Assembly (NCBI GenBank): GCA_964635635.1
Contig: CAZWPE010000006.1
Coordinates: 42,488-106,487 of the forward strand
Source: an uncultured Myxococcaceae bacterium
GTDB taxonomy: Bacteria > Myxococcota > UBA727 > JABDBI01
Direction of reading: 5' to 3'
DNA: 64,000 nucleotides
Shown here: in pieces, positions 1 to 11,436 of the stretch
How positions within the stretch are numbered: position 1 is the first letter of the stretch
Layout of the letters: each line of letters starts with the position of its first letter
Translations under genes and position numbers: made by a program
Notes under the pieces: generated by a model
Databases searched by the model: none
What the model was told of the DNA's origin: nothing
The model's input: the letters and a program-made list of their open reading frames with translations, nothing else

Positions 1-74
1 TCAATGCTTACTGCCTCAAACCCGAACTGGTTCGGCCTAATTATGGCTTAGAATCGACAATTGGGGGACGCTAA
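1..74 (+). CDS. 3' end of a gene truncated by the window start (…NAYCLKPELVRPNYGLESTIGGR*)
   Basis: Open frame from position 3 to TAA at 72-74; too short to assign a family. Confidence 0.3.
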   Translation, partial: NAYCLKPELVRPNYGLESTIGGR

Positions 75-224: not shown

Positions 225-725
225 ATGAATATTCTTCATACTGTTGGGAGTGCAATACGTTCTCTTTGGTCTGGCAATACAGAGGAGAGTCGACCTCGGA
301 CAATAGAAGGAGCGCACGATCATTTTGTGCAAAGCACAGATGCTATTGGAAAGCTTAATCCCGAAGATCCCAAAACACATAGCAAACTAGCCGATTATTT
401 CAATGACCCTGAGCGCCATGTACGCTGGGCAGCGGTCAAAGCTATTGCTAAGAATCCTGAAAAAATTGTAGACCCAGAAGTCATCCGTGCAACAATCTCA
501 CTGTTAAACGATGCCGATTCAGAAGTAAAGGCAACGTCACTAAAAGTTCTTAACAAAATTCCGCAAGGAACCCTCAAAGAAGCCATAAGTGGCATCAAAA
601 ATTTTGCAACAATCAATGAAACTATCAATAGCTTTTCAAGCAATGACCGCTCATCTGTCGTTAGGCAATTACTTCAACATCGTGCTGCAGAAATTGAGAA
701 CATGATAGACTCTGCCTTGCACTAA
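225..725 (+). CDS. HEAT-repeat protein
   Basis: Two HEAT-like units (FNDPERHVRWAAVKAIAK; LNDADSEVKATSLKVLNKI); SD-like AGGGGTAGGC upstream; no signal peptide. Confidence 0.65.
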   Translation: MNILHTVGSAIRSLWSGNTEESRPRTIEGAHDHFVQSTDAIGKLNPEDPKTHSKLADYFNDPERHVRWAAVKAIAKNPEKIVDPEVIRATISLLNDADSEVKATSLKVLNKIPQGTLKEAISGIKNFATINETINSFSSNDRSSVVRQLLQHRAAEIENMIDSALH

Positions 726-1522
726 TCTACTTGAAGACGAGAGTGGGCTCTACTAAAATCGTACCCATAGACCCATTCCAAATGTCCCAACATTTGACCC
801 AGGAGTCTAGGCTCTTCTTTGATGTCTTTAACAACAGCAAAATTATTATCACAATACGGGTCACTCCCATGTCCCTGGTGAATATAGAAGTTATGAAGAA
901 TATCTGTTTCCGGATACCAGACCGCAAAATAGTCATCCAACTTGGCAGGTATATTGTAGTGTCTTCCCAGGAGCTCACCTCTCCCTAATGAACCATTCGT
1001 ATGAAAAATTGAGTCCCTAGAGAACCCCTTAGAAGTTCTTTTGTGCCAGATACCAGAGGAAAGTCTATATCTATCCTTACCTTCTGGTTCAAATAAGAAA
1101 AAGTCCAAATGCGGCCTCTTAGGATCATCTTTAAAGTAAATTTGGGGAATAGTATCACTGTTAGGATGCTCATTTTTGCCAACAATCTTGTAACCCTTAC
1201 GCTCCAAGCTTTGAAATAGAGCAGTTCTATGCGCTTCATAGTCTTCTCTGAGGATTCCTAAATCAGCATCATCATCAAATGGCATGTGAGAACCAAATCT
1301 ATACGCCCCTATTAAGGTTCCGCTGTCTAACCAGTAGGTAATCTTATGTTCATTAAGACTATCCACAACATCTTCTGTGATTTTCTTGATATCTCTGAGC
1401 ACGTTTGGATGGGTTCTACAGCGTTCAAAATATTCTTCTGCAGACGTTTGTTTGAGTTGTTTACAACTGGAGGCACTCAACAATGCCGCTAATAAGGACA
1501 GAATTGCATATTTATTTATCAT
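722..1522 (-). CDS. LicD-family phosphotransferase with lipoprotein signal
   Basis: YWLDSGTLIGAYR…MPFDDDADLG is the LicD/fukutin NTase motif; HLDFFLF; N-terminus MINKYAILSLLAALLSASSC (start placed at Met19 of the ORF track). Confidence 0.85.
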   Translation of the reverse strand: MINKYAILSLLAALLSASSCKQLKQTSAEEYFERCRTHPNVLRDIKKITEDVVDSLNEHKITYWLDSGTLIGAYRFGSHMPFDDDADLGILREDYEAHRTALFQSLERKGYKIVGKNEHPNSDTIPQIYFKDDPKRPHLDFFLFEPEGKDRYRLSSGIWHKRTSKGFSRDSIFHTNGSLGRGELLGRHYNIPAKLDDYFAVWYPETDILHNFYIHQGHGSDPYCDNNFAVVKDIKEEPRLLGQMLGHLEWVYGYDFSRAHSRLQVD

Positions 1523-1624
1523 GTCTTTATTGTCTCTCAATAGGGCGTTTGCTGTCAACTCTAGAGAAAAAAACACAAGCAGAACAATTAGCTGATTTGA
1601 AAGAACTTTTTCTATTAATACGGC

Positions 1625-2542
1625 TTAAATCGAAAGTTTTTCAAAGCACTTTCGATACTTATATTCATTATCACTTTGCAAGTGCAGCGCATCTGCTGAT
1701 TCTTCCCCATGCTTAAAGGGGAGCAAATTAGCTGTGTATTGATTGTGAACCTTGAGGCGCTGAACTCCAGTAACAGCTAAAACATAAGAGATGGTGAGAT
1801 CATCTGACCCCCGGCAGCCCGGCTTCCTGGCCATTTCTTGCATAAGCCCAATCCTGATACGTTCGACCGGATACGCAATTCCTTGCCACCCTTCTACCAT
1901 ATCGCAATGCGATATGCCTGAATGTTGACAGGCTGAACGGCTGTGGGGAAAATCCTTAATCCCGAAAGCAGACCCATCGGCTCCTGCTCCACTCACGGCA
2001 GCATCAGGATATTTGGCAACTAGCAATAGAAGTTGCTCCGGAAGTCCCGCTGGGTAACCGATATCATCATCAAATGTGACTAAAATATGGCGCAATGTGT
2101 CAGCAGGTAACTTCTGCACTTCTTCTGCTGCTGGGAGTAATTTCATAATAGGGCCCAAATCACGTTTGGGACGTAGGATTTCTATCTTAGCAGAATACTG
2201 TTTGAGTTTTTCGATTTCTGCAGGCTCATAAGGTTCTTTATCTTTGTAGAGCTCAGGTATTGCGATGAAGACTTTTTCTGGGACTGATAAGTCAAGCGTA
2301 TCCAAGGTATAATGCAAAAGTGGCAATCTCTTAGGCGAGGTGGTTATTGAGTAAAATATCCTGCTGTTTTTTCGCATCTCTAAGAATGCTGGCGAGTTTT
2401 CTTTGGGAAGACGCCTGAGGCATTGGACTTGCTCTTCAATGGTTCCATGGTCACATGGATTTTTTTGGCAAGCCATTAGGCCCAAAAGAGACACGGCTAG
2501 CAATCCAAAAACAATATTCATAGCACAAAGTTTAGCACTCAA
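1625..2542 (-). CDS. GT-A-fold glycosyltransferase-like lipoprotein
   Basis: SITTSPKRL, GPIMKLLP, VTFDDDIGYP (DxD), SDDLTISY motifs; lipobox LGLMA-C; paralog of 2539..3576. Confidence 0.6.
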   Translation of the reverse strand: MSAKLCAMNIVFGLLAVSLLGLMACQKNPCDHGTIEEQVQCLRRLPKENSPAFLEMRKNSRIFYSITTSPKRLPLLHYTLDTLDLSVPEKVFIAIPELYKDKEPYEPAEIEKLKQYSAKIEILRPKRDLGPIMKLLPAAEEVQKLPADTLRHILVTFDDDIGYPAGLPEQLLLLVAKYPDAAVSGAGADGSAFGIKDFPHSRSACQHSGISHCDMVEGWQGIAYPVERIRIGLMQEMARKPGCRGSDDLTISYVLAVTGVQRLKVHNQYTANLLPFKHGEESADALHLQSDNEYKYRKCFEKLSI

Positions 2543-3576
2543 TCATGAAGCTTTGAAAGTGTTTCATTGTAGCATTTTTGGTATTTTGCTTCATGTTGAT
2601 GCGAATCGGTAACGTTACCCTGTGAATCAAGCTTATGAAGGCCTTTCTTCAATCCTGCTTGAAGCTGTATGATTGAATTCTTGGTAAACTTATTCTCAAT
2701 TTGAAACCTTGGGGTACCATGCGCAGCATGAACATATGAAATCACTAAGTCATCCGAGAGGCGACATGGCTGTTTTGGGGGTGCAGCAACTTTTTTAATC
2801 TGTTCGCTATTTACCAGATGCAATGGGTAAGCAACTGAATAAAAACCTTCGACAACGTCACAATTTGAGATTGATGCACTATGACATTTGATATCCGACA
2901 TCTGTCTACCTGGGAAATTTTTGATACCCCAAAAAGTAGAGGGTCGCCCACAACCACCTGCAACAACCGAATTGTGCTTCGAAACAACAAACTTTATGAG
3001 TTGAGCCGGTAAAGCTGGTGAGTAGACTGTGTCATCATCAAAAGTCAGCACCATTGCGCGTTTTTGTTCTTCGGGGGATAGGTGCTCTTTAAGATGATCT
3101 ACAGCAGACAGAAGTTTTGATGCAGGACCGTAATCAAAATCTTTCCTTAGAATCTGAATCCTTGGGTCCATTTTTTCTATCTTATCAATCTGTTTTTGAG
3201 AATAAGTCAGCTCAGGATCATTGCGATAGTTATGCGGAATCGAAATAAAAATCTTTTTAGGCACCCCTGGGATACCTGTATCTGCCAGCAAAGTTTTTAA
3301 AACATACGGCAATTCACTGGTTAATCGATCTGGATCCGTCGTCAATGAATAATAAACATCATATTTTGAAATATTTTCAAGTGTTTCTTCAGAGAGCCGC
3401 TCTTTAGCATACGAAAGGACTAACTCAGCAGCCTCTTCATTTGTTAGATCGGGACGACTTAAGGGGTTACTCTGCGGACAAGAGATAATCAGGAGACCAA
3501 CGGTAAAAACAAATAGTCTTCTGAGTGCGATAATATTCATGCGTGCAAGCATAACATAAACAGCCCATTTTGACAA
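2539..3576 (-). CDS. GT-A-fold glycosyltransferase-like lipoprotein (paralog)
   Basis: SLTTDPDRL, GPASKLLS, LTFDDDTVYS, SDDLVISY motifs align with the neighbour; lipobox-like LLIIS-C. Confidence 0.6.
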   Translation of the reverse strand: MSKWAVYVMLARMNIIALRRLFVFTVGLLIISCPQSNPLSRPDLTNEEAAELVLSYAKERLSEETLENISKYDVYYSLTTDPDRLTSELPYVLKTLLADTGIPGVPKKIFISIPHNYRNDPELTYSQKQIDKIEKMDPRIQILRKDFDYGPASKLLSAVDHLKEHLSPEEQKRAMVLTFDDDTVYSPALPAQLIKFVVSKHNSVVAGGCGRPSTFWGIKNFPGRQMSDIKCHSASISNCDVVEGFYSVAYPLHLVNSEQIKKVAAPPKQPCRLSDDLVISYVHAAHGTPRFQIENKFTKNSIIQLQAGLKKGLHKLDSQGNVTDSHQHEAKYQKCYNETLSKLHD

Positions 3577-3676
3577 AATCTTGTCCTAGTTCTAGCCAAG
3601 AAAAGTGTTACTATAATCATTCGCCAGTGAATCAACATCAGGCCCCCTTATCAAACCTCGATACCGCCAGCCAAAT

Positions 3677-5023
3677 CTAGTAATGACACAGCGCCATCCC
3701 CTTATGCATTTCTAACGAGTTGTAAGCTTTTTTCAGAGAGGATGTTGGAACATTTGCCTTCTCAAAAATTGAGATCAAGGCCCGATAATCTTCATGCCCA
3801 TCAATGCAACCAAACCAGTATTTAAAGTACATTTTTCTTGCCTCTATCTTCTTCTGGTCCTTTTTACTAAGCGCTTCTTCCACAGCAGCAACCAGATCCA
3901 CATTGAATTCATTCTGTAGAATAGTTGTTTCTTCTCCTAAAACAAGGCCTTTGTTAGCCGAAGCAGCCTGGGATATCTTGTGAACCTTATTCCACGAAAT
4001 TGTTGGGCGTAGAAATACTATCGGTAGCTCAGGTTTTGAAGTGGCGGCCGTAGTAGCGCCCGATATATTTCCAATTACCACATCTGAAATTTCATACAAT
4101 GGGACAAAAGACGGAAACTGAACCGGAGATGCTATCCGGAAATTTTTTAATACTTTTTCGTCTACTCGGGAACCCAATATTCCTGGATGCGTTCTCAGTA
4201 TAATATTATACTTTTTTTTCAATTCAATAAGATCATCCAGAACCCTTTCAAACACAGGGCACTCAGGGTCGAGAAATTCGAAGTCTCCAACCGGGGCGGT
4301 CCCAACATATAAGATGGTTTTTTTGGCAGAATCCAACCCATAGAAACGTTCAAATTCTTGCTTCGCCCTCGAGTTGACCATGTCATTAAATCTTGTAAAC
4401 ATAAGACTCATTGCAGGGTAAGGCATCTTATCGGGACTCAACAGTTTCTGCTCGCCATAAAAAACCTTATCCTCATCGACTCCATGCATAACACTCACAT
4501 AAAGACCCGGAGAATAGGAATGAAACATGTCTTGATCCGTAATCAGAATCCTTCTTTCTTGAGACAAATAAGAAGCACGAAATTCATCTTTCTCTGAAAA
4601 TAAGAACATCAAATCCCTAGCATAGCCGTGATCCAACAAGCGTCTCACAACATGTTTAACCATAGGGTCTTCTGCCTCCCCACAAAATGGCGCTGGGAAC
4701 ACATGAAATAAGGGCAACAAATGAACCAGAAAACAATCTCTTGATTTCAATTCATAGCATATTGAAACGCTATACTCTTTTGCCACTCTCTGAAGCTCTG
4801 CAGACAATCTAGTCTCTGCCGCTGTATGCTGATAGCCATGAGATTTCAATAAATCAGGAGCCATAGAGGGCTCAAATTTCCAGGCTAGCATCTCCTTAAG
4901 AAGCTTACTCCCCGGCTCTACTGCAGATTCAGGTGCTGCAGATTCAGGTGCTGCAGATTCGCCACACCGCACAAGCATAATGGTCATTACAAAAGTAAAA
5001 ATACCAGTCAAGAATCGGCCCAT
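3677..5023 (-). CDS. CDP-glycerol glycerophosphotransferase (TagB/TagF-like) family protein with lipoprotein signal
   Basis: C-terminal motifs KKTILYVGTAP, NIILRTHP, ISDVVIGNISG resemble the Glyphos_transf family; N-terminal hydrophobic stretch ending LVR-C. Confidence 0.6.
   Translation of the reverse strand: MGRFLTGIFTFVMTIMLVRCGESAAPESAAPESAVEPGSKLLKEMLAWKFEPSMAPDLLKSHGYQHTAAETRLSAELQRVAKEYSVSICYELKSRDCFLVHLLPLFHVFPAPFCGEAEDPMVKHVVRRLLDHGYARDLMFLFSEKDEFRASYLSQERRILITDQDMFHSYSPGLYVSVMHGVDEDKVFYGEQKLLSPDKMPYPAMSLMFTRFNDMVNSRAKQEFERFYGLDSAKKTILYVGTAPVGDFEFLDPECPVFERVLDDLIELKKKYNIILRTHPGILGSRVDEKVLKNFRIASPVQFPSFVPLYEISDVVIGNISGATTAATSKPELPIVFLRPTISWNKVHKISQAASANKGLVLGEETTILQNEFNVDLVAAVEEALSKKDQKKIEARKMYFKYWFGCIDGHEDYRALISIFEKANVPTSSLKKAYNSLEMHKGMALCHY
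4921..4960. repeat. 15-bp tandem repeat, about 2.7 copies (ESAAP peptide repeat)
   Basis: ctgcagattcaggtg twice plus ctgcagattc; encodes ESAAP-ESAAP-ESA just after the lipobox Cys. Confidence 0.95.
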
Positions 5024-5044
5024 AAAAACTCCCCTTTATAAGTG

Positions 5045-5638
5045 CTAAATTTTTTCTCGCTCTAACAAGATTAAAACCTGCCTAACCGCCTCTTTCTCAG
5101 CGCAGTTTACCGAGTTTTTTTCTAGTAAAGCCTCCAGAGTTAACTTTGTGGCCCTTTTGGTGATCTGTGTGGTTGAAATTCCATCTTCATATGGATAAGT
5201 TTTAAACTTGCCAACCTCCGAAAGCCCTGGATAATACTTTTGAATTTTTTCTTCTGTGTAGTCATCGCCATGCATAACCAAATCAATTTTGTAACGCTCT
5301 AGATAGTTAACATTAAAAACAAGGTCGGTTCCTTCAATGACTTCATCCACACCTTTAAAGCTTCTAATTTGATTCGCCCGTTGCTCCAAGTTCATGGCAG
5401 GCTCTCGTTTATAGGACTTAATATCACCGCCATTGACCCCCACCACTACCTTGATAGCTTCTGGATGAACATTAAAATGCTCCGCAGCTGCATTCCTGGC
5501 CTTCTCAAAAGATCTCTGGTGTCCATAATGTGCCATATCATAGATACCATCCACCCAAACACGGTATTCATTAAGAGACCCCGCAAAAACTGAGCCGCCA
5601 CTCAAAAAATACAGGATAAAAAATTTGAAAAAAATCAT
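5045..5638 (-). CDS. Cytidylyltransferase (choline/ethanolamine/glycerol-phosphate CTase-like) with N-terminal signal peptide
   Basis: RVWVDGIYDMAHYGH (HxGH), VDEVI, MHGDD, EDGISTTQI; N-terminus MIFFKFFILYFLSGGSVFA|GS (start placed at Met13 of the ORF track). Confidence 0.85.
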   Translation of the reverse strand: MIFFKFFILYFLSGGSVFAGSLNEYRVWVDGIYDMAHYGHQRSFEKARNAAAEHFNVHPEAIKVVVGVNGGDIKSYKREPAMNLEQRANQIRSFKGVDEVIEGTDLVFNVNYLERYKIDLVMHGDDYTEEKIQKYYPGLSEVGKFKTYPYEDGISTTQITKRATKLTLEALLEKNSVNCAEKEAVRQVLILLEREKI

Positions 5639-5840
5639 ATTTTTTAATATTATACGAGAAAAACACACTGTCAACAGGGTTAAGAACTTATAATCATCAC
5701 AATTAACGCAGCTTTCAAGCCATTTAGAGCCATGAAGCGCTCACTGAACAATGTCTCAAAGTTTCAACAGGATACACACAGCAAAAAATTAATTTGCTCA
5801 GCAGCTGCTTTCAAACGATGAAAAGGCATATGTTCACTGT

Positions 5841-6713
5841 ATGTCTTTTCTGAAAACACTCATTTTTTTGTTTGTATTCTCAGGCTGCTCTCCTGACTCA
5901 GGAAACAACAAAAACTTGGTGATCATCTTTGGAGTGGATGGTTTAGGAAGTCATAACTTATGGCGAGGAATTGAGAATGGTGTCTCTGCTCCTGTGGTCC
6001 CCAATATCGAGCAAATGAAAGAGACAGGAATATGGACTTCTAAGGCTGCTATTGATGAACTCAATTTCAGTGGACCCAATTGGATGGGGATGCTGACAGG
6101 TGCACCTAGTGCTGTTCACGGAGTTCAGACTAATAACTGTGAACGCGGCAACAACCTTGAAACAATTTTTGGCGCTCTCCGACGACAATTCAGGGATCTT
6201 CCAATATTTTTAGTGCATGAATGGGATATATTCGCCTGTTATCCCGAGCCAGGCAGTATCACCAAGTTTTTACACACGCGAAACACAACTGAATCTGCAC
6301 AAAAAACAGTGGATTTACTTACTCAACAAGCTTCAGGTGTTATTTTTATTGATTTTGATGAAGTAGATGCTGCAGGTCATCGTTCCGGAGGAAGCAGCCA
6401 AGACTACAAAAATGCCGTAGAGGCCGTAGATCGTGCGATTGGGATTATTCACCTTGCTGCTAGTAATCTGAAATTACTAGATCGTACCTATTTCGTTTTA
6501 ATTGCTGACCATGGACATTTAGCCAATGGCGGAGGGCATTCTTCATCGCAATTTCCTGTTCCCTTCATTGTTCAAGGACCCACAATTCACTCAGCAGAAA
6601 TTATTGAATCTATTTCGAATAATCAACTAGCTCCAGTTATCAGCACTCTACTCAACGCCACCCCTTCATTAGATTGGATTGCTCGATTATCACCATTTGA
6701 ATCCTATTTCTGA
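5841..6713 (+). CDS. Alkaline phosphatase superfamily (NPP/phosphodiesterase-like) lipoprotein
   Basis: IFGVDGLG metal motif, FSGPNW..MLTG nucleophile region, EVDAAGH, IADHG; lipobox FSG-C. Confidence 0.85.
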   Translation: MSFLKTLIFLFVFSGCSPDSGNNKNLVIIFGVDGLGSHNLWRGIENGVSAPVVPNIEQMKETGIWTSKAAIDELNFSGPNWMGMLTGAPSAVHGVQTNNCERGNNLETIFGALRRQFRDLPIFLVHEWDIFACYPEPGSITKFLHTRNTTESAQKTVDLLTQQASGVIFIDFDEVDAAGHRSGGSSQDYKNAVEAVDRAIGIIHLAASNLKLLDRTYFVLIADHGHLANGGGHSSSQFPVPFIVQGPTIHSAEIIESISNNQLAPVISTLLNATPSLDWIARLSPFESYF

Positions 6714-7313: not shown

Positions 7314-8477
7314 ATGTACGATCGTCTGGTTAAGCTGCCAAAAAATAAGAGTTTTTTTCTTTTTGGAGCGAGAGGGGCCGGCAAGTCAACCTTGCTCAAG
7401 TCAGCCTTTCAAGATGCAAAACCTATGGTGTTCGACCTATTAGACGTGGAATTGGTTGATGAACTGAGTCTGTACCCCAAGCGATTTGTCGACCGCATTG
7501 GCAAAAACAGCAATACTGTAATTGTTGATGAAATTCAAAAACTACCCAAGTTACTAGATTATGTTCATGCTCTGATTGAAGAAAAAAAACTCCAATTTAT
7601 TTTGACAGGCTCTAGCGCCAGAAGACTCAAACAAAAAGGCACCAACTTACTGGCAGGACGAGCTCTGGTCAGAGAACTCTATCCATTTTCAACTTTTGAG
7701 CTCCAAGGACATTTTGACCTCACGAAGGCACTTCAGCGCGGGGGACTTCCCGAAAGTTATCTGGCTTCTAGCGACGAAGAATCCAACGATTACTTGCGTT
7801 CCTATACATTAACTTACTTAGAGAAAGAGATTCAGCAGGAGCAATGGGTAAGAAAGCTTGAACCATTTCGAAGATTCCTCATGATTGCAGCACAGATGAA
7901 TGGCAAAATCATCAATCGCTCTATCATCGCCAGGGACTTAGGAGTCGACGATATGACTGTTGAATCCTATTTTGAAATTCTAGAAGATACTTATATTGGC
8001 TTCAGGCTACCAGCATTTCACCGTTCACCTCGTAAGCAAATGAAGCAATCGCCTAAATTTTACTTAATCGACCCAGGCTTAAAAAGAAGTCTGGAGCGAA
8101 CAACACGCGTGCCCTTGTTACCTCAAACCAGTGCTTTTGGAGATGCTTTTGAGCATTGGGTGATTTTAGAATTTTTGAAACTATCAAAATATTTGGCGTT
8201 GGACTGGGAGCTCTTTTACGCTCAAACCAAAGAGGGTGCGGAAATTGATTTGGTCATTACCCGGCCAGGTCAACCACTCTTACTGGTAGAAATCAAATCA
8301 AAAGAAGTCGTTACGAAAGAAGACGCCAAAACCTTAGAAACTTTAGGGAACGAATACCAAGAAGCCACTGAAAAATGGCTTTTATCTCGAGATCCTGTTT
8401 CACAAGAATTTGGAAGCACACAAGCAATGCACTGGTTGGATGCTTTAAAAGGTCGCATCTTACAAGCTTCAAATTAG
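7314..8477 (+). CDS. AAA_14 + DUF4143 ATP-binding protein (copy 1)
   Basis: Walker A GARGAGKS, Walker B IVDEIQ, LTGSSAR, LAGRA, PKFYLID, C-terminal EIDLV…LVEIKS PD-(D/E)xK-like motif. Confidence 0.9.
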   Translation: MYDRLVKLPKNKSFFLFGARGAGKSTLLKSAFQDAKPMVFDLLDVELVDELSLYPKRFVDRIGKNSNTVIVDEIQKLPKLLDYVHALIEEKKLQFILTGSSARRLKQKGTNLLAGRALVRELYPFSTFELQGHFDLTKALQRGGLPESYLASSDEESNDYLRSYTLTYLEKEIQQEQWVRKLEPFRRFLMIAAQMNGKIINRSIIARDLGVDDMTVESYFEILEDTYIGFRLPAFHRSPRKQMKQSPKFYLIDPGLKRSLERTTRVPLLPQTSAFGDAFEHWVILEFLKLSKYLALDWELFYAQTKEGAEIDLVITRPGQPLLLVEIKSKEVVTKEDAKTLETLGNEYQEATEKWLLSRDPVSQEFGSTQAMHWLDALKGRILQASN

Positions 8478-8498
8478 TTTTGATTTTAAAACCTTAAA

Positions 8499-8561
<63 letters not shown>

Positions 8562-8610
8562 CAAGCACCAGTAGGCCGTGAATCGGCCGTTAAAAATCAA
8601 GTCACAACAC

Positions 8611-8700
8611 TTGACCTATCAAGGACTTATGCTGTACAAAATTAGATATGAACTTCGATTTTGTCCAACAATTGCGCCATATCACTTCGGATTTGTCACA
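8611..8700 (+). promoter_or_regulatory. Putative promoter and imperfect direct repeats upstream of ATPase copy 2
   Basis: TTGACC(8611)-18 bp-TACAAA(8635); atatgaacttcgattttgtccaacaat and atatcacttcggatttgtcacaat are imperfect direct repeats ending at the ATG. Confidence 0.45.
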
Positions 8701-9867
8701 ATGATTCCTCGTTTGTTAGAGCTTCCGAGAGATTATAGCATACTGCTATTTGGGCCCAGAGGTTGCGGTAAGAGCACCCTTGTTCAATCTATTTTTTCGA
8801 GCAGCGCAGCGTATCGCATCGACCTATTGGAAGCCAGAGTAGAGCAAGAGTATGCATCCAACCCTGATGAGTTAATACCCGTCATACGGGCCCTTCATCC
8901 AAACATTAGCCACGTAATCATTGACGAAGTCCAAAAGGTCCCAAAGCTTCTGGACGTTGTTCATAAGCTTATCGAGGAAAAGGTCCCTCAGCAGTTTGTC
9001 TTAACCGGCTCGAGCGCCCGCAAACTAAAACGAGGCGGAGCAAATCTGCTCGCAGGAAGAGCCTTTGTTTATCACCTTCACCCATTTAGTTTTCTCGAGC
9101 AAGGAACCAATTTCAACCTGAGGATAGCCCTTGAGTTCGGACAGCTCCCGCGCGTTACACAGCTCCCGAATGCAGCTTCAAAAACGCGGCTACTGCAGAC
9201 CTATGTTAGCACGTACCTTAAAGAAGAAATAGCTGCCGAACAGCTGGTGAAGAATCTGGCGCCTTTTCGGAAGTTTTTAGAAGTTGCCGCACAAAGCAAT
9301 GGCAAAATTGTCAATTTTTCGAATATTGCCAACGACACAGGAATCAGTGACCGCACCGTCAAAGAATACTTTTCGATCCTAGAAGATACCCTAGTTGGCT
9401 TCTTTTTGGAGCCCTATGCGGGCTCTTTCAGAAAGCGCCTCGGGCAGAAACCTAAATTCTATCTATTTGATTTGGGCGTAGCTCGCGCTCTCAATCGAAC
9501 GCTCCCTGTAGCGCTTCTACCCCAAACAAAAGCCTATGGCGATGCCTTTGAGCACTTCGTGATTTTAGAGATTCACCGCCTGGTTTCATACTTTCTGCCC
9601 GACTATCGTTTGTCATATCTGCACACCAAAGATGATGAAGAAATTGACCTTATTGTCGATCGACCTGGTCAACCTCTGCTCTGTATTGAAATCAAGAGCG
9701 CGACAGATCTCACAGAAGACAATTTGAATAAGTTCGCCTCTCTGGTTAGCGGTCTTCCCGGCTCCGAGGCTGTCTGTCTATACAACGGTCAGGTTGAAAA
9801 GTTATATGGATCCATTAGAGTTATCCCGTGGGCCGAAGGTATCAAGCGATACTTTTTTCGATCATGA
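8701..9867 (+). CDS. AAA_14 + DUF4143 ATP-binding protein (copy 2)
   Basis: GPRGCGKS, IIDEVQ, LTGSSARKL, LAGRA, PKFYLFD, EEIDLI…IEIKS; start moved to MIPRLL by alignment with the paralogs. Confidence 0.9.
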   Translation: MIPRLLELPRDYSILLFGPRGCGKSTLVQSIFSSSAAYRIDLLEARVEQEYASNPDELIPVIRALHPNISHVIIDEVQKVPKLLDVVHKLIEEKVPQQFVLTGSSARKLKRGGANLLAGRAFVYHLHPFSFLEQGTNFNLRIALEFGQLPRVTQLPNAASKTRLLQTYVSTYLKEEIAAEQLVKNLAPFRKFLEVAAQSNGKIVNFSNIANDTGISDRTVKEYFSILEDTLVGFFLEPYAGSFRKRLGQKPKFYLFDLGVARALNRTLPVALLPQTKAYGDAFEHFVILEIHRLVSYFLPDYRLSYLHTKDDEEIDLIVDRPGQPLLCIEIKSATDLTEDNLNKFASLVSGLPGSEAVCLYNGQVEKLYGSIRVIPWAEGIKRYFFRS

Positions 9868-9901
9868 CTCTAAAGCGCTGTTTTGATTTTAAAACCTTAA
9901 A

Positions 9902-9978
<77 letters not shown>

Positions 9979-10090
9979 TTTCATTTGAAAGGGGGAGTTG
10001 CCCTTGTAGGCGTATTCAGTGAAGGTACCCGGCACTACAGGTTAACAGGCTTGTACTAACAACCAGTTCGGCATTTTTAATGGCTCTCGC

Positions 10091-10127
10091 TTGCCAATAG
10101 CGTGAAAACATAATAATGTTATTATGT
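10091..10127 (+). promoter_or_regulatory. Putative promoter with 9-bp inverted repeat over the -10 element
   Basis: TTGCCA(10091)-17 bp-TAATGT(10114); acataataa-tg-ttattatgt (10108-10127). Confidence 0.55.
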
Positions 10128-10158
10128 CGTGCATTTTAACATTATGCTTTGGTGAGCC

Positions 10159-11334
10159 ATGAAAAATCTTAATCGCCTATTAACACCCCCGACTGATTCC
10201 TTTTTCCTGTTTGGCCCAAGAGGTGTAGGCAAAACAACTTGGGTTCAAGAGCATTTTTCAAATAGTTTACGGCTGGATCTATTGGATAGTCGACTCTTTT
10301 TAAAGCTTTCGAAGGAACCCGCTCTTCTATCTGCCATTATCGGAAACCTGCCTAAAAACTCCTGGGTCTGCATTGATGAAATCCAGCGTGTCCCCATGTT
10401 GCTCAATGAAGTACAGCGTCTCATGACAGAAAAATCTTTCCGATTTGTACTGACAGGTTCATCGGCTCGCAAATTAAAAAGACAGGGTGCGAATCTGTTG
10501 GGTGGGAGAGCCCTCGTTGCCAACATGGAAGGACTTAGCTGCCAAGAATTAGGGGCCCATGCGAACATTAACTCTCTCATAACCATGGGCACCTTACCTT
10601 TGGTTGTTAATAAACCTGATCTGGCTAAAGATATTTTGGATGCCTATCTTTCAACCTACATCAAAGAAGAAATCCGCGAAGAAGGTATTATTCGCAAGGT
10701 AGAGCCATTCCTAAGATTTATAGAGATTGCCGGAGCAATGAATGCGCAAAAAGTGAACCACCAAAATATCGCGAGAGACGCAATGGTGCCCGGAAGTAAT
10801 GTCCAGAATTATTTCAGCATTTTGGTGGATACATTGGTGGGCCATTTCCTTCCGGCATATCGGCCTGCCCTTAAAGTTCGTGAAGTTAGTCATCCCAAAT
10901 TTTATTGGTTCGACCCCGGCGTGGCCCGGGCTGCAGCAGGGATGATGCGCGAAGAGATTGAGCCCGTTAGTCTTGGCTATGCATTGGAAACGCTTGTATA
11001 TCATGAACTCAGGGTATTTAATCAAACCCACAATAAGCATAGAAATATTTATTTTTATGAAACCGGAGCCGGATCTGAGATTGATTTTGTGATTGAAAAC
11101 CGCAAAAAAACGCACTCTCAGAAAGCCTCCCTGGTATGTATTGAGGTTAAGAATTCAAAAACCTGGAACAGTAGTTGGGAATCAGCTATTCGAAGCGTTC
11201 AAAAAGAAAATAAAGTAATTGTCGAAAAAGCCATCGGGATTTACCGTGGCCATGAAAAGCTCGAGTTTGAAAACTTTACTGTCTATCCAGTTGAGCAGTT
11301 CATAAGATTTCTGTACCAGGGAGCAATTTTTTAG
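10159..11334 (+). CDS. AAA_14 + DUF4143 ATP-binding protein (copy 3)
   Basis: GPRGVGKT, CIDEIQ, LTGSSARKL, LGGRA, PKFYWFD, EIDFVI…IEVKN. Confidence 0.9.
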   Translation: MKNLNRLLTPPTDSFFLFGPRGVGKTTWVQEHFSNSLRLDLLDSRLFLKLSKEPALLSAIIGNLPKNSWVCIDEIQRVPMLLNEVQRLMTEKSFRFVLTGSSARKLKRQGANLLGGRALVANMEGLSCQELGAHANINSLITMGTLPLVVNKPDLAKDILDAYLSTYIKEEIREEGIIRKVEPFLRFIEIAGAMNAQKVNHQNIARDAMVPGSNVQNYFSILVDTLVGHFLPAYRPALKVREVSHPKFYWFDPGVARAAAGMMREEIEPVSLGYALETLVYHELRVFNQTHNKHRNIYFYETGAGSEIDFVIENRKKTHSQKASLVCIEVKNSKTWNSSWESAIRSVQKENKVIVEKAIGIYRGHEKLEFENFTVYPVEQFIRFLYQGAIF

Positions 11335-11359
11335 AATTGTTTTGATTGCCAACCTTAAA

Positions 11360-11436
<77 letters not shown>

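Follow-up and report, generated by a model that had tools for sequence, protein, structure and literature searches.

Where can a bacterium carry out chemistry that consumes cytidine triphosphate (CTP) and nucleotide-sugars? In bacterial glycobiology, the steps that depend on CTP, nucleotide-sugars or S-adenosylmethionine (SAM) are cytoplasmic, and periplasmic steps use lipid-linked donors because, in the textbook view, activated nucleotides are absent outside the cytoplasm. The question is raised by a cluster of six adjacent genes in a 64,000-nucleotide stretch of DNA from an uncultured Myxococcaceae bacterium (GenBank assembly GCA_964635635.1, contig CAZWPE010000006.1, positions 42,488 to 106,487; hereafter, the window). 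The cluster encodes a cytidylyltransferase (CT), a LicD-family phosphotransferase, a TagF-like enzyme, two glycosyltransferases of the GT-A fold and a phosphodiesterase, and all six products carry predicted export signals. We propose, with moderate confidence, that it specifies an extracytoplasmic envelope-decoration pathway, located in the periplasm or at the cell surface, that would run on host CTP and nucleotide-sugars.

Enzyme families and folds of the cluster

The six open reading frames (ORFs) lie at window positions 722-6713, all with the coordinates given by the initial annotation, which had described six adjacent enzymes. Its enzyme assignments hold at the level of family or fold: LicD, CT and the phosphodiesterase are recognised by Pfam hidden Markov models (HMMs), and the GT-A and TagF-like proteins, which are not Pfam members, are assigned by fold. 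Five genes on the minus strand (CT, TagF-like, GT-A, GT-A and LicD) are tightly spaced or overlapping, and the gene of the nucleotide pyrophosphatase/phosphodiesterase (NPP) diverges from them on the plus strand. The genes are as follows, a slash marking the end of the signal:

722..1522, minus strand: LicD/FKRP-like phosphotransferase, predicted lipoprotein; signal MINKYAILSLLAALLSASS/C; DDDxD motif
1625..2542, minus strand: GT-A glycosyltransferase 1 (305 aa), predicted lipoprotein; signal ...LLGLMA/C; TTG start, 4-nt overlap with the upstream stop
2539..3540, minus strand: GT-A glycosyltransferase 2, predicted lipoprotein; signal MNIIALRRLFVFTVGLLIIS/C; invariant DDD and SDD motifs, conserved Cys
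3677..5023, minus strand: TagF-like GT-B enzyme (448 aa); signal MGRFLTGIFTFVMTIMLVR/C; AAPES repeat linker; invariant HGxD and RxHP
5045..5638, minus strand: CT of the type of ethanolamine-phosphate (ECT) and choline-phosphate (CCT) cytidylyltransferases; cleavable signal MIFFKFFILYFLSGGSVFA/G; HYGH motif
5841..6713, plus strand: NPP-type phosphodiesterase (alkaline-phosphatase superfamily), predicted lipoprotein; signal MSFLKTLIFLFVFSG/C; divergent transcription

CT matches Pfam CTP_transf_like (PF01467) with 63.7 bits against a cut-off of 21. When its family profile was compared with solved structures, human ECT was the closest relative (6.8e-38), followed by CCTs (7e-24 to about 1e-23), a phosphonate-type CT domain (3e-13) and TagD structures (about 1e-6). 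CT also fails the TagD equivalog model, NCBIfam TIGR01518, reaching 28.6 of the 165.4 bits required. Because the profile scores ECT and CCT far above TagD, we regard CT as an ECT/CCT-type enzyme. Its HxGH motif (H37-Y-G-H40) is invariant among homologues, and the position of the RTxGISTT motif of ECT and CCT is occupied by an equally invariant PYExGIS(T)T, in which GIST is kept and R-T is replaced. CT homologues are rare: only 17 were found among 5.8 billion clusters, a survey of 40 genomes from its order or phylum gave no convincing match, and a search of viral contigs found no relatives.

LicD matches Pfam LicD (PF04991) with 48.6 bits against a cut-off of 22.6, over an alignment that spans only profile positions 2-42, and its best match in the PDB is human FKRP (1.4e-7). 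It carries the acidic motif WLDxGTLLG...PxDDDxD, of which W64, L65, G72, R75, D83-D85 and D87 are invariant in the family alignment (A4). Only seven homologues occur among the 5.8 billion clusters, and one distant homologue, P0092, has a long transmembrane (TM)-like anchor in place of a lipobox. A lic operon was considered and set aside: choline-kinase matches were weak, APH-like and signal-less, and were not used. NPP matches Pfam Phosphodiest (PF01663; 53.4 bits, cut-off 23), its nearest relatives being Xanthomonas NPP (3.5e-8) and ENPP7 (5e-5), with ENPP3 also among them, and it contains the metal-ligand and nucleophile motifs GVDGLG, SGPN, DxxGH and DHGH, whose residue equivalence was judged by eye.

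For the GT-A and TagF-like proteins, PDB searches with single sequences and profiles returned nothing useful, and fold prediction combined with Foldseek resolved them. The two GT-A proteins are paralogous (34% identity). Pfam Glycos_transf_2 scores 19.1 bits on the 345-aa protein, under its cut-off of 23.3, and a Pfam scan of the 305-aa protein gave no match to it. An AlphaFold2 model built from ten family members (predicted local distance difference test score, pLDDT, 86; predicted template-modelling score, pTM, 0.85) matches SpsA, GlfT2, GalNAc-T, KfiA and heparosan synthase, with E values of 1e-7 to 1e-6 and template-modelling scores of 0.42-0.47. The DXD motif (DDD, D168-D170) is invariant. 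Only six GT-A homologues were found among the 5.8 billion clusters, and 8 of 21 genomes of the bacterium's taxonomic family contain the GT-A protein family. A more distant homologue, P0023 (29% identity), has a long N-terminal TM-like anchor and no lipobox; three such tandem paralogues lie directly 5' of a type IV pilin gene and pilB-pilC-pilD-coaE, a gene context that hints at a role in the glycosylation of pilin or surface proteins.

The TagF-like protein has no match to Pfam Glyphos_transf (PF04464) at E <= 0.01, and 6 of 15 members of its family match this profile weakly (best 3.7e-5). Its model (pLDDT 86) has TagF (3l7j) as best Foldseek match (3.2e-7; template-modelling score 0.43-0.46), followed by TarL and the TagF-like capsule polymerase Cps3D; UDP-GlcNAc 2-epimerases score similarly. 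H180 and H279 are invariant and may correspond to the catalytic histidines of TagF. Directly after the lipobox Cys lies a linker with a tandem AAPES-AAPES repeat (residues 21-32; window 4927-4962, minus strand), and the model is disordered here (pLDDT below 50 for residues 21-35). The protein family has 63 representatives among 1.84 billion clusters, and within the 21 genomes its gene occurs only in the present one.

Export signals and their conservation

Lipoboxes were called with a rule of the PROSITE PS51257 type: K or R in the first seven residues, a hydrophobic region without charged residues, and [LIVMFWSTAG]2-[LIVMFYSTAGCQ]-[AGS]-C at positions 15-35. Four of the six proteins, namely LicD, both GT-A proteins and NPP, follow this rule, compared with 84 of 1694 ORFs (5%) genome-wide in a crude gene set. 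With this difference, and with the pattern repeated at other loci, chance clustering of lipoboxes was rejected. In CT, a hydrophobic region of 10-13 residues ends in SVFA/G, an A-x-A-type site judged by inspection. The claim that all six proteins bear export signals, one of them cleavable, thus stands, and the count of five lipobox-like signals is revised to four canonical and one non-canonical, the latter in the TagF-like protein.

Mis-called start codons do not account for these signals. All in-frame starts were listed, and none located past a hydrophobic segment retains the conserved N-terminal blocks; the possibility raised by the initial annotation, that true starts lie downstream of the hydrophobic segments, is therefore rejected, and the leaders themselves are conserved. 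A strong Shine-Dalgarno sequence (AAGGGGAG) precedes the ATG of the TagF-like gene.

Conservation of the signals extends across the families. In CT, all 18 homologues (17 from the database and one from NORP243, a genome of the same taxonomic family) have a hydrophobic region of 10-14 residues followed by an A/V-x-A/G/S site (FA/, FG/ or FS/). The lipobox Cys of GT-A occupies a single column in nine of the ten members of alignment A2 and is also found in copies from six further genomes of the family. Among the six closest homologues of the TagF-like protein, five have a Cys aligned with that of the window protein, four of them in a canonical lipobox, and close LicD homologues with complete N-termini carry the lipobox as well (P0088, P0090, both L005 copies and L006). 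No leader is present in the more distant Chloroflexota CTs (30-37% identity), and the GT-A relatives found in giant-virus contigs of metagenome-assembled genomes (MAGs) in IMG/VR (L056-L070, up to 296 kb; 28-32% identity) are mostly without one, some having an N-terminal TM anchor or signal; the signal is therefore a trait of this lineage. Additionally, the mature GT-A and LicD domains contain conserved Cys residues, as expected of oxidised extracytoplasmic proteins. The genome encodes Lgt, LspA and Omp85, which marks the organism as a diderm whose lipoprotein pathway functions.

The CT of NORP243 (L006:1990-3003) is fused at its C-terminus to a beta-rich domain of about 145 aa that ends in ...AVGYAW. 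In two other genomes of the family, this domain exists as a stand-alone signal-peptide protein encoded beside GT-A genes (L050:3031-3591 and L052:894-1460; E 1e-32 to 1e-34). Fusion to a domain that is secreted elsewhere provides an independent argument that CT works in an exported compartment. The extension was also compared with an adjacent 225-aa protein resembling outer-membrane proteins (OMP-like); the two show no similarity, and a different secreted family was matched.

Recurrence of the module in related genomes

A second, smaller and paralogous module is present on another contig of the same genome (G000:C4:184398-188085), beside a MiaB-like gene. Its genes encode a small OMP-like protein with a signal peptide, a lipoprotein of the LicD family, a signal-peptide-bearing CT (57% identical to the window CT), another OMP-like protein and a lipoprotein of the GT-A family, and the module is syntenic with one contig of an NCBI MAG (L003) and with the NORP243 contig (L006). 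A metagenome contig (L005) encodes a CT, a LicD-DUF3431 fusion, a GT90 protein, two GT-A proteins, a LicD and a second CT, with a lipobox or signal-peptidase I signal on every protein. Other relatives enlarge the repertoire. Specifically, SAM-dependent methyltransferases and a GT1 enzyme of 705 aa, all lipobox-bearing, are encoded on three contigs of the NCBI MAG (L003, L042 and L043), and NORP243 adds a PLOD-type glycosyltransferase lipoprotein. The methyltransferases (Methyltransf_11/25; L042:850-1548, L042:3344-4114 and L003:7271-7972) share a conserved WFEDEATHCDADKLHHCSAWRY block and could be exported phosphoethanolamine methyltransferases; a search of the present genome found no homologue of them. 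The module was not found outside the family. Taken together, signals are kept in all CT homologues, 9 of 10 GT-A homologues and most LicD and TagF-like homologues, and the module recurs; the initial annotation, which had named signal-peptide conservation and synteny in related genomes as a check, is supported on both counts.

Probable access to host nucleotides

The genome, of 1.81 Mb and 99.6% completeness, contains genes for a full-length TLC nucleotide translocase (C2:155062-156507, 621 bits) and for a second, more distant TLC-like transporter (C5:61517-62746). TLC proteins are a hallmark of bacteria that take up host ATP and other nucleoside triphosphates (NTPs), and we found them in 20 of the 21 genomes of the family (0.3-3.4 Mb) compared with none of 14 control genomes. 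The organism thus has the appearance of an energy parasite that lives within host cells. A myxobacterium of intracellular lifestyle and similar genome size is known, Pajaroellobacter abortibovis (1.82 Mb; PMC5295582).

The TLC translocase sits in the inner membrane, so host nucleotides that reach it must cross the outer membrane and the periplasm. Host NTPs crossing the periplasm would therefore be available as co-substrates to an exported set of CT, LicD, TagF-like and GT-A enzymes. NTPs, including CTP, are present around intracellular chlamydiae, in the inclusion lumen (PMC12102696). Dependence on host CTP through loss of pyrG was considered and rejected, as pyrG is present; host CTP is therefore not metabolically forced, and the argument is one of access, not of necessity. 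The non-canonical location with access to host nucleotides that had been suggested from the locus itself is supported, as an inference, by TLC in 20 of 21 genomes and by the recurrent signal-bearing module.

Flanks of the cluster and promoter-like sites

The cluster continues leftwards past the window with genes for a GT25-like lipoprotein and a small OMP-like protein, which corrects the bounds first given for it. Neighbouring features and promoter-like sites are:

1..74, plus strand: 3' end of the GT25-like lipoprotein gene; signal LFLSAC/S; full gene at G000:C6:41758-42561, mostly outside the window
C6:41212-41748: small OMP-like signal-peptide protein, just 5' of the GT25-like gene and mostly outside the window; OMP_b-brl E 9e-4, under the cut-off
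225..725, plus strand: HEAT-repeat protein without signal; HEAT_2 32.7 bits; N-terminus not hydrophobic
3548..3576, minus strand: promoter-like element TTGTCA-17-TATGCT (TG upstream); distance to the ATG at 3540, 8 nt; consensus match only
5647..5674, minus strand: promoter-like element TTGACA-16-TAATAT; distance to the CT ATG, 9 nt; consensus match only

The GT25-like protein scores 23.9 bits with Glyco_transf_25, against a cut-off of 24. The HEAT-repeat gene is convergent with LicD, overlapping it by 4 nt, and is a possible member of the module. The TTG codons reported as starts of CT (5674) and of the 345-aa GT-A protein (3576) by the ORF finder coincide with the -35 hexamers of the two promoter-like sites. 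Their spacing of 8-9 nt from the ATGs suggests leaderless or near-leaderless mRNAs. The G+C content of the region (0.40-0.42) is below that of the main contigs of the genome (0.45-0.47). After the cluster, window 7314-11436 holds three copies of AAA_14/DUF4143 ATPase genes together with a tRNA-Asp. Such genes also follow the related cluster in the metagenome contig (L005:7316-8473), and this adjacency is therefore conserved.

A proposed envelope-decoration pathway and its alternatives

In the pathway that we propose, all six proteins are predicted from their sequences to be exported by Sec, and Lgt and LspA would lipidate four or five of them, CT being released as a soluble protein. CT would then make a CDP-alcohol from CTP and a phospho-alcohol. 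Phosphoethanolamine or phosphocholine would be the most likely substrate, and CDP-ethanolamine or CDP-choline the most likely product because of the affinity of CT to ECT and CCT. From this donor, the LicD/FKRP-like and TagF-like enzymes would transfer or polymerise the phospho-alcohol, and the GT-A and GT25-like enzymes would attach sugars from nucleotide-sugars. The acceptor would be an envelope glycan, a lipid or an outer-membrane protein, possibly one of the co-encoded small barrel proteins. NPP may free the phospho-alcohol from host phosphodiesters or trim the product, which is the weakest step of the scheme. The lipobox methyltransferases of related clusters would suit a step from phosphoethanolamine to phosphocholine.

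Several points weigh against this pathway. The altered RTxGISTT motif means that the activity or the substrate of CT may differ. Signals were called by the PROSITE rule and by inspection, not by SignalP or LipoP, and the TagF-like lipobox reads LVRC, with R at position -1. The genome encodes pyrG and hence its own CTP synthesis, and a search for a choline or ethanolamine kinase gave no match above threshold and none with a signal. The outer membrane is assumed to be permeable to CTP and nucleotide-sugars, and life as an energy parasite is deduced only from TLC and genome size. We infer the identity of donor and acceptor, the host origin of the substrates and the extracytoplasmic location.

The exported enzymes might instead modify proteins, glycans or lipids of the host, with host CDP-alcohols and nucleotide-sugars as donors, and would reach these targets through vesicles, lysis or as surface lipoproteins. 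The proteins have a eukaryotic secretory-pathway flavour, with FKRP as best PDB match of LicD and GT90, DUF3431 and PLOD-type domains in related clusters; GT-A relatives occur in giant-virus contigs; and ankyrin-repeat and HEAT-repeat genes lie nearby. Legionella effectors, moreover, use host UDP-glucose and CDP-choline. However, a lipobox anchors its protein to a bacterial membrane, genes for small OMP-like barrels are in tight linkage with the modules and one CT is fused to a secreted domain; the barrel linkage and the fusion therefore point to the bacterial envelope, and we consider a host-directed function unlikely.

Less probable still is a conventional cytoplasmic pathway, in which the hydrophobic segments would be uncleaved anchors holding the enzymes on the cytoplasmic face, or in which the starts would differ. 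To our knowledge, all characterised bacterial LicD, TagF, TagD and CCT steps are cytoplasmic; pyrG is present, and the distant homologues P0023 (GT-A) and P0092 (LicD) have long TM-like anchors and no lipobox. Nevertheless, the hydrophobic regions, at 10-14 residues, are too short for a membrane span, a conserved lipobox Cys or A-x-A site comes after them, and the positively charged N-termini favour an N-in, C-out orientation. Conserved Cys residues in the mature domains, the fusion of one CT to a secreted domain and the loss of conserved blocks with any downstream start also speak against cytoplasmic enzymes.

The least probable alternative, that the proteins are exported and work without nucleotide-activated donors, as re-purposed hydrolases, binding proteins or scavengers of host CDP-choline or CDP-ethanolamine (CT would catalyse its reverse reaction or act as a pyrophosphatase, and NPP would break down nucleotides that are then taken up), would fit the altered RTxGISTT motif, the co-located NPP and the benefit of nucleotide salvage to a TLC-bearing parasite, but HxGH, DXD, DDDxD and both TagF-type His motifs are invariant in their respective families, which fits retained transferase chemistry, and the CT, LicD and GT-A genes travel as a module, as in biosynthetic pathways.

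Origin and significance

The enzyme families of the extracytoplasmic pathway proposed here are known, and what appears to be new is that the predicted extracytoplasmic placement extends to the entire module and is conserved in a lineage that carries TLC. The GT-A relatives of giant viruses point to gene exchange inside eukaryotic, probably protist, hosts, and GT90, DUF3431 and PLOD-type glycosyltransferase domains are typical of the eukaryotic secretory pathway. A broader scenario, possible although we hold it only tentatively, is that a TLC-bearing, host-cell-dwelling lineage, probably of reduced Myxococcota, moved a whole enzyme toolbox across its inner membrane as lipoproteins. This toolbox would comprise the cytidylyltransferase, the LicD/FKRP-like, TagF-like and GT-A enzymes, GT25, GT90, GT1 and PLOD-type glycosyltransferases and SAM-methyltransferases. 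In this scenario, the periplasm or surface would resemble a Golgi lumen fuelled directly by metabolites of the host cytosol, and the lineage would share parts of the toolbox with giant viruses and eukaryotes through gene transfer.

If the predicted location is true, a conserved set of such enzymes exported as Sec substrates and lipoproteins would be an exception to the rule that places this chemistry in the cytoplasm. It would represent a new means by which intracellular bacteria draw on host metabolites, by building their surface outside their own cytoplasm; the module would serve as a testable marker of access to the host cytosol; and intracellular bacteria, giant viruses and eukaryotic secretory-pathway enzymes would be linked. 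Additionally, the module defines several very rare protein families, and a surface decoration of the phosphocholine or phosphoethanolamine type bears on the immune recognition of such organisms.

Comparison with known systems

The cluster resembles the Lic pathway of Haemophilus and Streptococcus pneumoniae (LicA/B/C/D) in that a LicD-family transferase is encoded beside a cytidylyltransferase that would make a CDP-alcohol, and in the predicted placement of phospho-alcohols on surface glycans. It differs from that pathway in its cytidylyltransferase, which is of the ECT/CCT type (PF01467) and not LicC, and in the absence of a LicA-type kinase above threshold, LicB not having been searched for. 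Furthermore, Lic enzymes are cytoplasmic, whereas all proteins here carry predicted export signals.

With wall teichoic acid and capsule systems (TagD/TagF, TarL and Cps3D), the cluster shares a probable TagF-like GT-B fold, TagF being the best structural match, and a PF01467 cytidylyltransferase in the same operon. Unlike in those systems, the TagF-like protein of the window lies under the Pfam Glyphos_transf threshold and is a predicted lipoprotein, CT is far nearer to ECT and CCT than to TagD, and the organism is a diderm, as Omp85 is present.

Likeness to eukaryotic enzymes of the endoplasmic reticulum and Golgi lumen (FKRP, fukutin, GT90/POGLUT, PLOD-type glycosyltransferases and COLGALT/GT25), together with cytosolic ECT and CCT, is seen at several levels. 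Human FKRP and ECT are the best solved relatives, GT90, DUF3431 and PLOD-type domains occur in the related bacterial clusters, and the proteins carry N-terminal signals that would direct them to the topological equivalent of the secretory lumen. In contrast to the eukaryotic enzymes, the proteins of the cluster have bacterial lipoboxes, the cytidylyltransferase is predicted to be exported where that of eukaryotes is cytosolic, and the scheme does not call for a nucleotide-sugar transporter.

Among parallels demonstrated by experiment, the closest is that of Chlamydia trachomatis, whose glycogen enzymes are secreted into the inclusion lumen and run there on host UDP-glucose (PMC4829429; bioRxiv 10.1101/2020.10.11.335026). 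The route there is type III secretion and the chemistry that of glycogen, as distinct from the Sec and lipoprotein signals found here, and what is predicted for the present cluster has been shown by experiment for the chlamydial enzymes. In both cases, an intracellular bacterium would place nucleotide-sugar enzymes of cytoplasmic type outside its own cytoplasm and supply them with activated substrates derived from the host.

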